Origin: an uncultured Rickettsiales bacterium
Lineage (GTDB): Bacteria > Pseudomonadota > Alphaproteobacteria > Rickettsiales > SXRF01
DNA: 64,000 nucleotides
Direction: 5' to 3'
Assembly: GCA_964535825.1 (NCBI GenBank)
Contig: CAZHUC010000004.1
Location: forward strand, 97,065-161,064
The position numbers were made by a program, and so were the translations under genes. Shown piece by piece: positions 11,184 to 15,641 of the stretch. Every line of letters starts with the position of its first letter. Within the stretch, counting starts at the first letter, position 1. Under the pieces are notes generated by a model that saw only the letters and a program-made list of their open reading frames with translations, had not been told where the DNA came from and ran no database searches.

Positions 11184-12845
11184 ATGACATTTGATTTTTC
11201 CAAACACAAAGACGACCTGTTGTTCGTGCCGCTTGGCGGCTCTAACGAGATCGGCATGAACCTGAACCTTTACACCTATGGCGGCAAATGGCTGATGGTG
11301 GATTGTGGGATGGGCTTCGCCGGTGATTATTATCCGGGCGTTGAGATATTACTGCCGGACATTTCTTTCATTGTTGAGCGTAAGGAAGATCTGCTTGGGT
11401 TGGTCATCACACATGCGCATGAAGATCATCTGGGGGCAGTGCCATATCTCTGGCGCGAGCTTGAATGCCCGATATATGCCACACCGTTTACCGGTACATT
11501 CCTGAAACACAAAATGTCCGAGATGGGACCCGGTAAAAAGCCTGAGGTCATCTCGCTGGAATCCGGTGGCAAGGTGGATATTGGCGCGTTCTCGCTGGAG
11601 CTGGTGGAGCTAACACATTCTATTCCGGAAATGCAGGCCGTGGCGATCACCACTCCCAAAGGTGTCGTGATGCATACAGGCGACTGGAAGTTCGATGAGC
11701 GTCCGATGATCGGTCCGGTATCAGATTATGACCTGCTCAAGAAATATGGCGATGGCAAGGTGCTTGCCATGGTCTGCGATTCAACCAACGTTTTCGTTGA
11801 AGGTGAAGCAGGCTCAGAAGGCGAGGTGCGTGAGCATCTGATTGAGCTTATCAAGAAGTGTCCAAAACGCGTGATCGCAACCACCTTTGCATCAAACCTT
11901 GCGCGTGTTGAATCCCTCATGATAGCCGCCAAGGAAGCGGGCAGGGTGGTGGCGCTGGTTGGGCGTTCGCTGCATCGCATGAAGGATGCCGCGGAGCAGA
12001 CAGGCTATCTCAATGTAGATGTGGAGATAGTCAGCGACAAAGAGATCATGAACCTGCCGCGGGAAGATGTGCTTATTATCTGCACAGGCTGTCAGGGCGA
12101 GCCGCGCGCGGCGCTCACACGCATTGCCCGCGGCGAGCATCCTTCGGTGCGGTTGCAACCGGACGACACGGTGATATTTTCTTCACGCAAGATCCCCGGC
12201 AATGAATCCAAGATACACTGGATGATAAACCGCCTGATCGAAAAGAAGGTGGAGATCATTACAGACAAAGATTACTACATTCACGTTTCTGGCCATCCGG
12301 CGCGTGACGAGCTCAAGCGTATGTATGAACTGGTACGTCCGCAGATCGCTGTGCCAACGCATGGTGAGCCATACCATCTGCATGAACATGCAAAACTGGC
12401 TCGCTCATTGGGTGTGGCTGAAACGGTGGAAGCCAGCAATGGCGCAGTGGTGTGGCTTGAGAAAGATGAAGCCAGTGTGATAGGCCGCGTACAATCAGGC
12501 TATATTGCGGTGGATGGACATTCACTGATTCCTGCAGATTCCGAGATCATCCGCACGCGCCGTAAAATGCGCGATGATGGTATGGTGGTGGCAAGTCTGG
12601 TGCTGGATCAGGACGGTGAACTGCAAGCGCCCGTAACGCTTACTATGCCAGGATTGCTCAGCAAGGATGAAGACAAAGAACTTATCGTAGAATTGACGGA
12701 CGAGGTTACCCGCATCGTAGAAGATGCAAAGGCGCGTCAATCAGATGATCAGATCAGGGAAACCGTGCGGCTCGCACTTCGCAAGATGCTAACGCGCGAG
12801 CTGAGCAAAAAACCGGTAATAGAGATCCACGTCAGCAGGATTTAG
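11184..12845 (+). CDS. rnj: Ribonuclease J
   Basis: THAHEDHLG metallo-beta-lactamase motif, HTGDWK, HVSGH. Confidence 0.96.
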   Translation: MTFDFSKHKDDLLFVPLGGSNEIGMNLNLYTYGGKWLMVDCGMGFAGDYYPGVEILLPDISFIVERKEDLLGLVITHAHEDHLGAVPYLWRELECPIYATPFTGTFLKHKMSEMGPGKKPEVISLESGGKVDIGAFSLELVELTHSIPEMQAVAITTPKGVVMHTGDWKFDERPMIGPVSDYDLLKKYGDGKVLAMVCDSTNVFVEGEAGSEGEVREHLIELIKKCPKRVIATTFASNLARVESLMIAAKEAGRVVALVGRSLHRMKDAAEQTGYLNVDVEIVSDKEIMNLPREDVLIICTGCQGEPRAALTRIARGEHPSVRLQPDDTVIFSSRKIPGNESKIHWMINRLIEKKVEIITDKDYYIHVSGHPARDELKRMYELVRPQIAVPTHGEPYHLHEHAKLARSLGVAETVEASNGAVVWLEKDEASVIGRVQSGYIAVDGHSLIPADSEIIRTRRKMRDDGMVVASLVLDQDGELQAPVTLTMPGLLSKDEDKELIVELTDEVTRIVEDAKARQSDDQIRETVRLALRKMLTRELSKKPVIEIHVSRI

Positions 12846-13327
12846 TGCATCTGCTGCTGTTGTGTGGCACGGGCAGCACGTTCCTGAGCGATCTTGTCGC
12901 GGAACTTGTTAGACGCGCCGGTCTGCTGTTCCTGTGCGATATTGTGGCCAACCATCATGCCCTGCGCGTATGAGATCTTGGCAACATTTGCCACATCTTC
13001 GCCAGATACCTGTGTGGCTTCACGACCACGCACCACTTCAGTAGCCATACCGGAATAACCGCCAACAGCACCCATTGTCATGCCGCCCAGCGTAGCACCG
13101 GTCAATGCAGACGCACCCGTAATACCCAAGGTAGCAATTCCTTGCCCTGCTGCTTCTGGTATAAAGCCTCCCAGAAAAGCTTCTGCTGCCCCCGGGAATA
13201 TCAATGCGCCCACGGCTGCTATTGCAGCACCCGCTATGACACCAACTGCACCACCGGCAAGTGCGCCTTTAATAAAGCCGCCGATACCGTCCATGACTGA
13301 ACCAAAGAATGATTTCTTTTCTTCCAT
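12842..13327 (-). CDS. Hypothetical glycine-zipper membrane protein (cassette gene D, 161 aa)
   Basis: AGGAG RBS 6 nt before ATG; GFIKGALAGGAVGVIAG has five consecutive GxxxG positions; two hydrophobic segments; no family recognised. Confidence 0.8.
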   Translation of the reverse strand: MEEKKSFFGSVMDGIGGFIKGALAGGAVGVIAGAAIAAVGALIFPGAAEAFLGGFIPEAAGQGIATLGITGASALTGATLGGMTMGAVGGYSGMATEVVRGREATQVSGEDVANVAKISYAQGMMVGHNIAQEQQTGASNKFRDKIAQERAARATQQQQMH

Positions 13328-13336
13328 AATTAACTC

Positions 13337-13771
13337 CTAACTTCCCCTTACAAGATCATTATTTCTTACATTTGCCGGCAGACCACCCCCCGACACGATT
13401 TCCATATCACCGCCAGTTTCACGGCTTTTACCACGCTCACGCGAATGTTCGCGTAGCATCCTGTTTTGCAGCTCAATCTCTTTATCGCGGAATTGTGTCT
13501 CTGCCTTCACACCCTGATAGGCGGCAACGCCACCGGTGATCACACTGCCGATACCAACACCGATCGCCATGCGCTTGATGAAATCACCTGCGCCAAGTTC
13601 TGCAGTGCCGAGCAGATCCCAGCCGCCTAAATTACCCATCACGGCAGATGCACCAAGCAGAAGGCCGGAAATTAAAATACCGCGCGGCAGGTAATCGATC
13701 ACGGCTTTGCCGAAGGATTTGATACCAGCACCAACTTTTTCAAGGAATGTGAGAGGATGTTTCGTTTCCAT
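13337..13771 (-). CDS. Hypothetical membrane-hairpin protein (cassette gene C, 144 aa)
   Basis: TGATG stop/start overlap with gene B; two Gly-rich hydrophobic segments then a charged helical tail. Confidence 0.8.
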   Translation of the reverse strand: METKHPLTFLEKVGAGIKSFGKAVIDYLPRGILISGLLLGASAVMGNLGGWDLLGTAELGAGDFIKRMAIGVGIGSVITGGVAAYQGVKAETQFRDKEIELQNRMLREHSRERGKSRETGGDMEIVSGGGLPANVRNNDLVRGS

Positions 13772-14490: not shown

Positions 14491-14512
14491 TCAATTATTT
14501 AATATAGTCATT

Positions 14513-14557
14513 AGTTTAACATAACCATTATAGGGGTTATGTGAACATTTTATGACA
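14513..14557 (-). promoter_or_regulatory. Direct-repeat box TGTCATAAAATGTTCAC plus 22-nt spacer plus -10 TAAACT (promoter of genes B-C-D)
   Basis: Box 14557-14541, -10 14518-14513 on the minus strand; same geometry at 15670-15714 and 58760-58804. Confidence 0.7.
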
Positions 14558-14579
14558 TGCCAGAAACCAGCTGTCGAGA

Positions 14580-15641
14580 TTAATGGGGGGTGGCCCTTGT
14601 ATGGTCAAAAGAAAGCAGGGCCTTTTCAGCAGCTGCAGCTACCCTGTCACGGTGGTAAGTGCTTGATTCTGGGTAATCTATCATGCTTTCATACGATGGC
14701 GTAGGTTTAGCTGTTTTGCCGTGCCCATTACCGTTTTTACCATTTTCTAGCTCTTCTCCAATGGCTTGGCCTGCAGCCTTCTGCTGTGCTTCCACTGCCT
14801 GGGCGGCTTCCTTGGAAACAACCCCTTTGAACCACATATCCGTCTTATCAAAGATACGGCGGAAAAGGTCACGATTCAGGCCAAAACTAGCACCAAGCGC
14901 ACCGAAGGTTGCCATGGATGCAGTACCAATTCCCAGCCCGTTCAGCACACCACCTTCAGCCACCAGCTTGCCTAGAATATGCTCGGCTGCACCGGTATAG
15001 GCGAAGAGTGCACCTGCAGCCACACCAGCAACAAGGCCAACCAGGGATACCTTCCAGAAAGCTACCCTGTTCTTCTTGTCAGGCTCAAGCTGGGCATAGT
15101 GGGTGGTGCGGTAAGGTTTATCTTCCATTTCCCGCGACAGAGTGTTGAACCCTGCGGATTGCTGTGCCGCACTTGCTGCGCCTTTCGCATCACCTTTGAT
15201 GATGGCTTTGATCTCGGCGATATCCTGCTTTAATTCATTGAATCTGCCTTCTTCATAAAGCTTTATGCGCACTTCGGCTTCTTCCTGAGCTGCTGCAACA
15301 GCGCCGGTTACTTTGCCTATATCGCCAAATTCATGCACACCGAACAATGCACCCGCAGAGGCAAATCCACCAACGATCGCTGCAGCCAGAGGCAATCCAA
15401 TTGTGGCCGCTGTGCCAGCGGTTGCAAGCGTCGCAATACCTGCGATCACACCACCAATGACGCCGCCAATCACCGCACCGATGACAAGACCACCGAATTT
15501 ACCCTTTACGCTACCTTTGTAGGATTCCCACCAGGCATGATGGTAATACGGACCCTCGTCATTCGGCGACATGCCCTGATCCATTTTCTTTTGTAATTCA
15601 AGGTACTTTTCGGTATCCATTCCCAAAAATCCTAGTGCCAC
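14580..15641 (-). CDS. Hypothetical glycine-zipper membrane protein with two hairpin domains (cassette gene A, 353 aa)
   Basis: GLVIGAVIGGVIGGVIAG glycine zipper; second Gly-rich hydrophobic block; start GTG 15641 or ATG 15620. Confidence 0.82.
   Translation of the reverse strand: MALGFLGMDTEKYLELQKKMDQGMSPNDEGPYYHHAWWESYKGSVKGKFGGLVIGAVIGGVIGGVIAGIATLATAGTAATIGLPLAAAIVGGFASAGALFGVHEFGDIGKVTGAVAAAQEEAEVRIKLYEEGRFNELKQDIAEIKAIIKGDAKGAASAAQQSAGFNTLSREMEDKPYRTTHYAQLEPDKKNRVAFWKVSLVGLVAGVAAGALFAYTGAAEHILGKLVAEGGVLNGLGIGTASMATFGALGASFGLNRDLFRRIFDKTDMWFKGVVSKEAAQAVEAQQKAAGQAIGEELENGKNGNGHGKTAKPTPSYESMIDYPESSTYHRDRVAAAAEKALLSFDHTRATPH

Follow-up and report, generated by a model that had tools for sequence, protein, structure and literature searches.

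The window analysed here, a 64,000-nucleotide stretch of DNA from an uncultured Rickettsiales bacterium of the GTDB lineage SXRF01 (contig CAZHUC010000004.1, positions 97,065 to 161,064), carries between rnj and mce four co-oriented open reading frames (ORFs), here called A, B, C and D, that constitute a previously undescribed protein family and operon. The account that we hold to be probable, by a modest measure, is that of an ancestral operon under the control of a response regulator; its paralogous hairpin proteins would assemble in the producer's own cytoplasmic membrane with A as the core and B-D as accessory components. The operon would have been inherited vertically within an uncultured alphaproteobacterial clade, the basal free-living families placed in the GTDB Rickettsiales. 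A would be the obligatory core: its two hairpin modules (four transmembrane (TM) helices) would leave both termini in the cytoplasm, where a helical stalk would also lie, and its C-terminal helix is conserved. B, C and D would be single-hairpin accessory subunits, encoded in a fixed order on the same transcripts, and would most likely pack on A via GxxxG faces to give a hetero-oligomer. The two predicted promoters would each lie 22 nt downstream of the same 18-bp direct repeat, and because both sit behind this Pho-box-like element we propose that the operon is switched on by a response regulator of the OmpR/PhoB type, possibly PhoB under phosphate limitation. The product would most likely be a stress- or nutrient-induced membrane complex acting as a small channel or as a membrane-stabilising scaffold. 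As a general kind, membrane oligomers of glycine-zipper helical hairpins that stand under two-component control are already known, and no unprecedented mechanism is shown here.

Conservation, selection and family searches

A preliminary description of the window, made from the letters alone, had presented the four genes as orphans inserted into a gene order that is normally contiguous. The first term does not hold, as gene A has 55 full-length homologues with 38-86% identity, a profile search of 1.84 billion representative proteins returned 253 clusters at E < 1e-3, and orthologues of B, C and D lie in the same loci. All named sources of the A homologues are uncultured metagenome-assembled genomes labelled Alphaproteobacteria, Rickettsiales or Pseudomonadota bacterium, and A was found in 30 species-representative genomes. 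The ORFs of all fetched loci were classed with hidden Markov models (HMMs) built from the window's proteins. In every locus that reaches far enough, A is divergent from mce or DUF1467, and in the main clade B, C and D come next in that order, ahead of convergent rnj. Wherever the genes occur, their order A-B-C-D never changes, and the profile and neighbourhood search that had been suggested as a check found the four genes together in this order even where the A proteins are only 40% identical.

The synteny is kept while RNase J identity ranges over 59-91% and A identity over 34-80%. Beyond the closest relative, identities of 69-77% in RNase J go with 47-57% in A, and divergence is faster than this in B, C and D (25-55% identity at greater distances). 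Distances of A and RNase J correlate moderately (Pearson 0.53, Spearman 0.33), with most pairs near saturation, and for this reason the argument for vertical inheritance rests on synteny and not on the correlation. Because all relatives examined that carry A have the cassette at the same site and its guanine-cytosine (GC) content (0.45-0.56) equals that of the flanks, it is, judging from these sequences, ancestral to the clade rather than a recent or mobile insertion; it does interrupt the usual alphaproteobacterial gene order, but has done so since the ancestor of the clade. A seeming orphan cassette that breaks a conserved gene order can thus prove to be a lineage-core operon and not an accessory weapon.

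Gene content varies around this fixed order. An approximate hand tally over ~22 distinct complete loci places A, at full or half length, in all of them, B in ~19 (directly after A), a D-like gene in ~18 and C in ~12. One locus encodes half-A, B, two copies of C, and D (L037), another half-A, B, C and D (L038). More distant relatives possess a fused four-hairpin protein of 600-690 aa, which in L044 takes the cassette's place between DUF1467 and rnj and in L043 and L045 is divergent from DUF1467-proS-lolCD; in L040 its neighbours differ.

Selection was assessed against the closest relative (L007), whose RNase J is 91% identical. The ratio of nonsynonymous to synonymous substitution rates (dN/dS) is 0.07 for A, 0.18 for B, 0.09 for C and 0.22 for D, compared with 0.03-0.06 for the neighbours rnj, proS, coaX and mce. 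A-D are real genes under purifying selection.

Among A-D, 53 members of the A family and ten distant relatives, searches of Pfam, NCBIfam, PADLOC and PHROGs gave nothing significant, and Pfam and NCBIfam in particular gave no confident match to a known housekeeping family. C has a weak PADLOC match to BnzA (E 6.6e-5, 19.8 bits) that covers the hydrophobic stretch only, and a single weak PHROG match of 19 bits. Sequence profiles of the PDB returned marginal, composition-biased matches to XPA, TraT, SmhB and MscL, with E 0.012 for the hydrophobic hairpins of TraT and SmhB and E 0.5 for MscL. Foldseek against the PDB likewise yielded nothing significant, the best values being E 1.5 for the model of A and E 0.6 for that of B, so that MIC60 and VIPP1, which take the top ranks for B, carry no significance. 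A word search with the D profile was swamped by low-complexity candidates and returned only 11 members of the clade. Several families with similar hairpins were considered and set aside. The Glycine zipper 2TM / Rick_17kDa_Anti family (PF05433) has no Pfam match in A-D and matches one of the 53 A-family members at E 0.014; for a glycine-zipper Omp lipoprotein, neither a lipobox nor a signal peptide is visible at the N-termini; and hairpins of the Mic10/HIG1 type were dropped because the topology of Mic10 is opposite to the predicted one with termini in the cytoplasm and the uncharged loop outside.

The host lineage gives these observations their context. SXRF01 is a GTDB family described as the most basal of six 'ancient-stage' Rickettsiales families; the same work portrays these as aquatic, flagellated, free-living and metabolically autonomous, with an expanded signal transduction (bioRxiv 10.1101/2023.01.31.526412). 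The fetched loci, one of which (L030) is contig SXRF01000037, also hold motA, flagellin and genes of aromatic amino-acid catabolism. Basal 'Rickettsiales' families are used to reconstruct the transition from free-living to host-dependent life in alphaproteobacteria, and a gene set that all members examined keep at a single locus, behind a dedicated and deeply conserved control element, probably matters to the biology of the clade, yet it is wholly unannotated.

Hairpin modules and predicted topology

All four proteins are built from a common module, in which a short amphipathic lead-in ending in K-G is followed by a Gly/Ala-rich hairpin with a very short uncharged loop and then by charged helices. 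Hairpins followed by charged helices had been described before, and we find two or four uncharged segments per protein; by inspection only, no signal-peptide-like N-terminal segment is visible in A-D, in keeping with the earlier statement that a Sec signal peptide is lacking. In gene A, the predicted helices TM1-TM2 span residues 42-96, a long cytoplasmic helical hairpin follows at about 96-166, and TM3-TM4 lie at 188-248. Seven glycines (G44, G48, G52, G56, G195, G199 and G203) are invariant in 53 sequences, the string GLVIGAVIGGVIGGVIAG that had been singled out in A is present, and conserved motifs include DEGPYYHHxWWESYKG, YRTTHY, GASFGINRDxFRxxFDKTD and a C-terminal LLSFDHTRATP[HQ]. Gene B features a conserved VAASGFGKG, two hydrophobic helices and a long charged helix. 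The five-position zipper reported for D was recovered as Gly 17, 21, 25, 29 and 33 in i+4 register, and the last residue of both A and D is usually a conserved His.

Profile-profile alignment with hhalign relates D to residues 33-121 of A (probability 95.9%, E 5e-9) and to the lead-in and first TM helix of B (88%, 27 columns), and the D HMM matches both halves of A as well as B and C. This homology makes D paralogous to A's first hairpin module, and A is accordingly a double module; the half-A and four-hairpin relatives show the module split and fused. With half, single, double and quadruple hairpin versions at hand, the family lends itself well as a model for the way in which membrane oligomers are built from glycine zippers.

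AlphaFold2 models of A and B are all-helical, with a mean predicted local distance difference test (pLDDT) score of 71.7 and 71.3, respectively, and in the model of A, TM2 continues into the cytoplasmic helical hairpin of ~45 residues. Lysines and arginines were counted over the 53 A sequences. The mean count is 0.0 for loop 1 and 0.4 for loop 2, compared with 2.9, 2.1 and 3.4 for the flanks with a predicted cytoplasmic location. This pattern fits a positive-inside, resident inner-membrane protein with the N- and C-termini predicted on the cytoplasmic side.

The conserved box and its candidate regulator

Two copies of a direct repeat precede genes A and B in the window (box 1 and box 2, Table 1). 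Upstream of A, 25 aligned relatives share TTGTCA[CT]AAAA[GC][CT]TTCACTTT at a constant distance to a TAnnAT hexamer, and upstream of B, 13 relatives with an A-B spacer of more than 80 nt share [ACT]TGT[CA]AT-AAA-nnTT[AC]AC; in the window, box 2 is separated by 22 nt from TAAACT (14513-14518). Every A-like gene with a covered upstream region in the fetched loci has the box there, and a copy also stands ahead of B in all loci with an A-B spacer of more than 80 nt apart from L022, where the spacer is long and no box scored. A position weight matrix (PWM) built from the aligned A and B upstream sites gives 21-30 bits for the box ahead of the A-like gene in main-clade loci, 17-27 bits for that in the five distant relatives and 17-28 bits at the detected B sites. 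Elsewhere in 425 kb of flanking DNA only one site reaches 15 bits or more, an inverted copy in L024, and the distant four-hairpin genes have the same box 20-22 nt from TATAAT. The box is a concrete handle for finding the signal that induces the operon.

Direct repeats with an 11-bp period are typical of regulators of the OmpR/PhoB family. The motif obtained by chromatin immunoprecipitation for Caulobacter PhoB consists of two YGTCAYR repeats with an A-rich 4-nt spacer (bioRxiv 10.1101/741363). The cassette box resembles a Pho box in its 18-bp direct repeat, its 11-bp periodicity, its A-rich spacer and its orientation, which is the same as that of transcription, and its first repeat TGTCA[CT]A matches the PhoB motif perfectly. 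The second repeat, [CT]TT[CA]AC (TTCAC or TTAAC), differs by a conserved T in place of the G of YGTCAY. In E. coli, Pho boxes lie ~10 nt from the -10 element, and the cassette box, ending 20-22 nt from it, is ~12 bp farther away. These two departures weigh against PhoB itself, and because of them the regulator may be another protein of the OmpR family; we treat PhoB as a lead suggested by the motif and not as a result. No pst or pho genes are present in the window or the fetched loci. Two other candidates were rejected on their motifs, namely CenR (TGA-N8-TGA; PMC9275681) and Caulobacter ChvI (TTGC-N3-GCAA; PMC9731502), neither of which fits the box.

Several minor features accompany the promoters. 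A further TTGTCAT half-site lies within ctgtattgtcatatatcgtc at 15721-15740 (-), ~14 nt upstream of box 1, is common to L007 and may be an additional regulator-binding half-site. In L024 alone, the inverted copy (~5903-5920 (-), 23.7 bits) stands just upstream of the normal box. Several relatives (L007 at ~5985-6003; L015, L021, L024) have the -10 hexamer only 6 nt before the start of A, which suggests a leaderless A mRNA in these four, while in the window and other relatives the predicted leader measures 35-50 nt.

In the 64-kb window the PWM finds only three sites. The third is a weak copy (13.6 bits) 22 nt before TATAAT, upstream of an unannotated 182-aa protein at 58205-58753 (-) for which PADLOC and PHROGs gave no match; its sole metagenome relative (47% identity) has no box upstream. 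A dispersed box regulon is unsupported, since the third box is weak and the relative lacks it. The tail of the 182-aa protein, GQDMSLGLG, is similar to that of an unannotated 94-aa protein at 18456-18740 (-), GQGAGMSLG, which has no match in Pfam, PADLOC or PHROGs.

Explanations weighed, and layout of the locus

The preliminary description had proposed a hetero-oligomeric apparatus aimed at a host, prey or competitor cell. Its multi-component part agrees with the fixed A-B-C-D order, the translational coupling and the paralogy of A and D, all of which fit one multi-subunit membrane assembly; the export and the aim at another cell are unsupported. In that explanation, A-D would be exported by a type IV secretion system (T4SS), a type I secretion system (T1SS) or another system encoded elsewhere and would form a multi-component pore or translocon in a foreign membrane. 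A hairpin and helical tail without a signal peptide do recall Inc proteins, translocators of the type III secretion system (T3SS) and the heads of tripartite alpha-pore-forming toxins, the conserved C-terminal His of A and D could be a recognition tag, and an rvh T4SS has been reported in related basal Rickettsiales lineages (PMC9352585; PMC11077975). Against this stands the absence of any secretion, chaperone or immunity gene adjoining the cassette in ~40 related loci, as had already been noted for transporter and immunity genes at this locus; the neighbours in the window and the loci are rnj, mce, DUF1467, proS and lolCD. The fixed housekeeping site and vertical inheritance contrast with the patchy, island-borne occurrence of Cdz-like systems (PMC5380434), the charge distribution of A is positive-inside, A has a dN/dS that would be low in an effector, published work describes the clade as free-living, and neither Pfam nor Foldseek gave a significant match to SseC, IncA or ClyA/Ahl/Smh. 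We therefore consider export unlikely.

Like chlamydial Inc proteins and the T3SS translocators (SseC/IpaB), the cassette proteins have a bilobed hydrophobic hairpin whose loop is very short, carry their soluble parts on the same side of the membrane, end in coiled-coil tails and lack a Sec signal peptide, but SseC matches in Pfam only one of the 53 A-family members (E 0.046) and Foldseek finds nothing in the PDB below E 0.6; Inc proteins moreover form a variable effector repertoire, whereas the operon is fixed and clade-wide in hosts described as free-living. The Caulobacter toxins CdzC and CdzD, likewise alphaproteobacterial and with repeated GxxxG zippers and several small proteins per operon, are 86 and 84 aa long with N-terminal leader-like signals, and their genes, which are often acquired horizontally, lie beside those for a T1SS (cdzAB) and for immunity (cdzI; PMC5380434). 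The proteins of the cassette, in contrast, have 144-346 aa and cytoplasmic helical domains and are vertically inherited, so that none of the marks of a Cdz-type system, that is linked cdzAB and immunity gene, leader toxins of ~5-10 kDa and patchy distribution, was found in it. Tripartite alpha-pore-forming toxins (SmhB/AhlB) also place a Gly/Ala-rich helical hairpin on long helices and are encoded in multi-component operons, and the D profile aligns with residues 166-230 of the SmhB head at the marginal E value given above, with strong composition bias. However, Foldseek ranks AhlB 28th and SmhB 41st with TM scores of 0.13-0.15 and E ~5, and the long N-terminal helical bundle of that family is absent from the cassette proteins. 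Effectors of the type VI secretion system resembling Tse4 were rejected as candidates, as no vgrG, hcp, PAAR or immunity gene is present at this or the related loci.

It is also conceivable that A-D form no single complex but are redundant, independently acting and merely co-regulated small membrane stress proteins, an expanding and contracting array of paralogues. The variable copy number (A alone, A+B, A+B+D, A-B-C-C'-D, half-A, fused) and the module common to all four proteins would agree with this. We nevertheless find it improbable, since the order is invariant, B, C and D keep family-specific motifs such as VAASGFGKG in B, orthologues remain recognisable over distances at which identity is 40%, which argues for distinct, non-redundant roles, and translational coupling is typical of stoichiometric partners. 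A mobile, defence- or phage-derived cassette, or spurious ORFs, could be thought of in view of the missing family matches and the weak resemblance of C to BnzA. This resemblance is confined to the hydrophobic stretch, the GC content equals that of the flanks, and neither repeats nor an integrase or tRNA were found at the borders; with the shared site, the purifying selection, the lack of any significant PHROG match and of any relative of the cassette proteins on viral contigs, the idea is effectively refuted.

The same observations leave some weight against the resident complex under a response regulator that we favour. Many relatives do without C and D, and two (L019, L032) have A only; the complex, if any, would therefore have a variable composition. 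The alignment of B with A is not significant in hhalign (14%), the association of A-D is deduced from operon structure and paralogy, the topology comes from hydropathy and charge counts and not from a dedicated predictor, and exported Inc-type proteins likewise show hairpins with short uncharged loops. Possible though doubtful is a bolder version, in which the cassette would encode a clade-defining and hitherto unknown modular glycine-zipper machine, either a phosphate- or envelope-stress-gated channel or membrane-remodelling lattice that would form a structural class of its own, or a pore or translocon that inserts itself and is delivered to neighbouring cells. If the pore or translocon option were true, it would represent an early host- or partner-directed membrane effector in the lineage giving rise to the obligate intracellular Rickettsiales.

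The arrangement of four co-oriented ORFs between rnj and mce agrees with the earlier account, as judged by the ORF coordinates and the TIGR00649 and TIGR03081 matches. The backbone reads nuoN-birA-coaX-rnj, cassette, mce-DUF1467-proS-lolCD-dnaE, where mce encodes methylmalonyl-CoA epimerase (TIGR03081, 167 bits).

Table 1. Coordinates of the cassette genes, their control elements and the adjoining genes in the window
Feature	Position	Strand	Remarks
box 1, TTGTCACAAAACTTTCAC	15698..15715	(-)	direct repeat TGTCA, then TTTCA 11 bp later; PWM 28.9 bits
probable -10 of the A promoter, TAAGAT	15670..15675	(-)	22 nt downstream of box 1; predicted
box 2, ATGTCATAAAATGTTCAC	14541..14558	(-)	in the A-B spacer; PWM 23.9 bits
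gene A	14580..15620	(-)	346 aa from ATG at 15620; in-frame GTG at 15641 gives 353 aa
gene B	13771..14490	(-)	239 aa from TTG
gene C	13337..13771	(-)	144 aa; one Gly-rich hairpin and charged tail
gene D	12842..13327	(-)	161 aa; one hairpin
rnj (RNase J)	11184..12845	(+)	TIGR00649, 436 bits; convergent with gene D
mce and DUF1467	15752..16386	(+)	divergent from gene A

For A, the ATG start is favoured because homologues begin with MDTEKY, and for B, alignment with relatives makes the in-frame GTG at 14478 the likelier start, which gives 235 aa. The tight coupling of B, C and D described earlier is evident from the overlap of the B stop and the C start as TGATG and from an AGGAG that straddles the C stop (TAG), 8 nt ahead of the ATG of D. 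The stops of D (-) and rnj (+) share 4 nt (12842-12845). Between these convergent genes there is no terminator-like hairpin, and L001, L012 and L015 show the same tight packing.

Two further observations concern the flanking genes. In L043 (9204-9854 (-)) and L045 (9181-9876 (-)), the DUF1467 protein reaches a length of 216-231 aa through a Pro-rich extension at its C-terminus, which closes with a conserved DACP motif. Between proS and lolC of the window lies a 239-aa ORF without a Pfam match (17688-18407 (+)), in a stretch with a GC content of 0.36-0.38 compared with ~0.51 around it; the spot differs in relatives, which have a 56-aa gene (L001) or a TfoX_N gene (L039) there, and the ORF looks like a small strain-specific insert.

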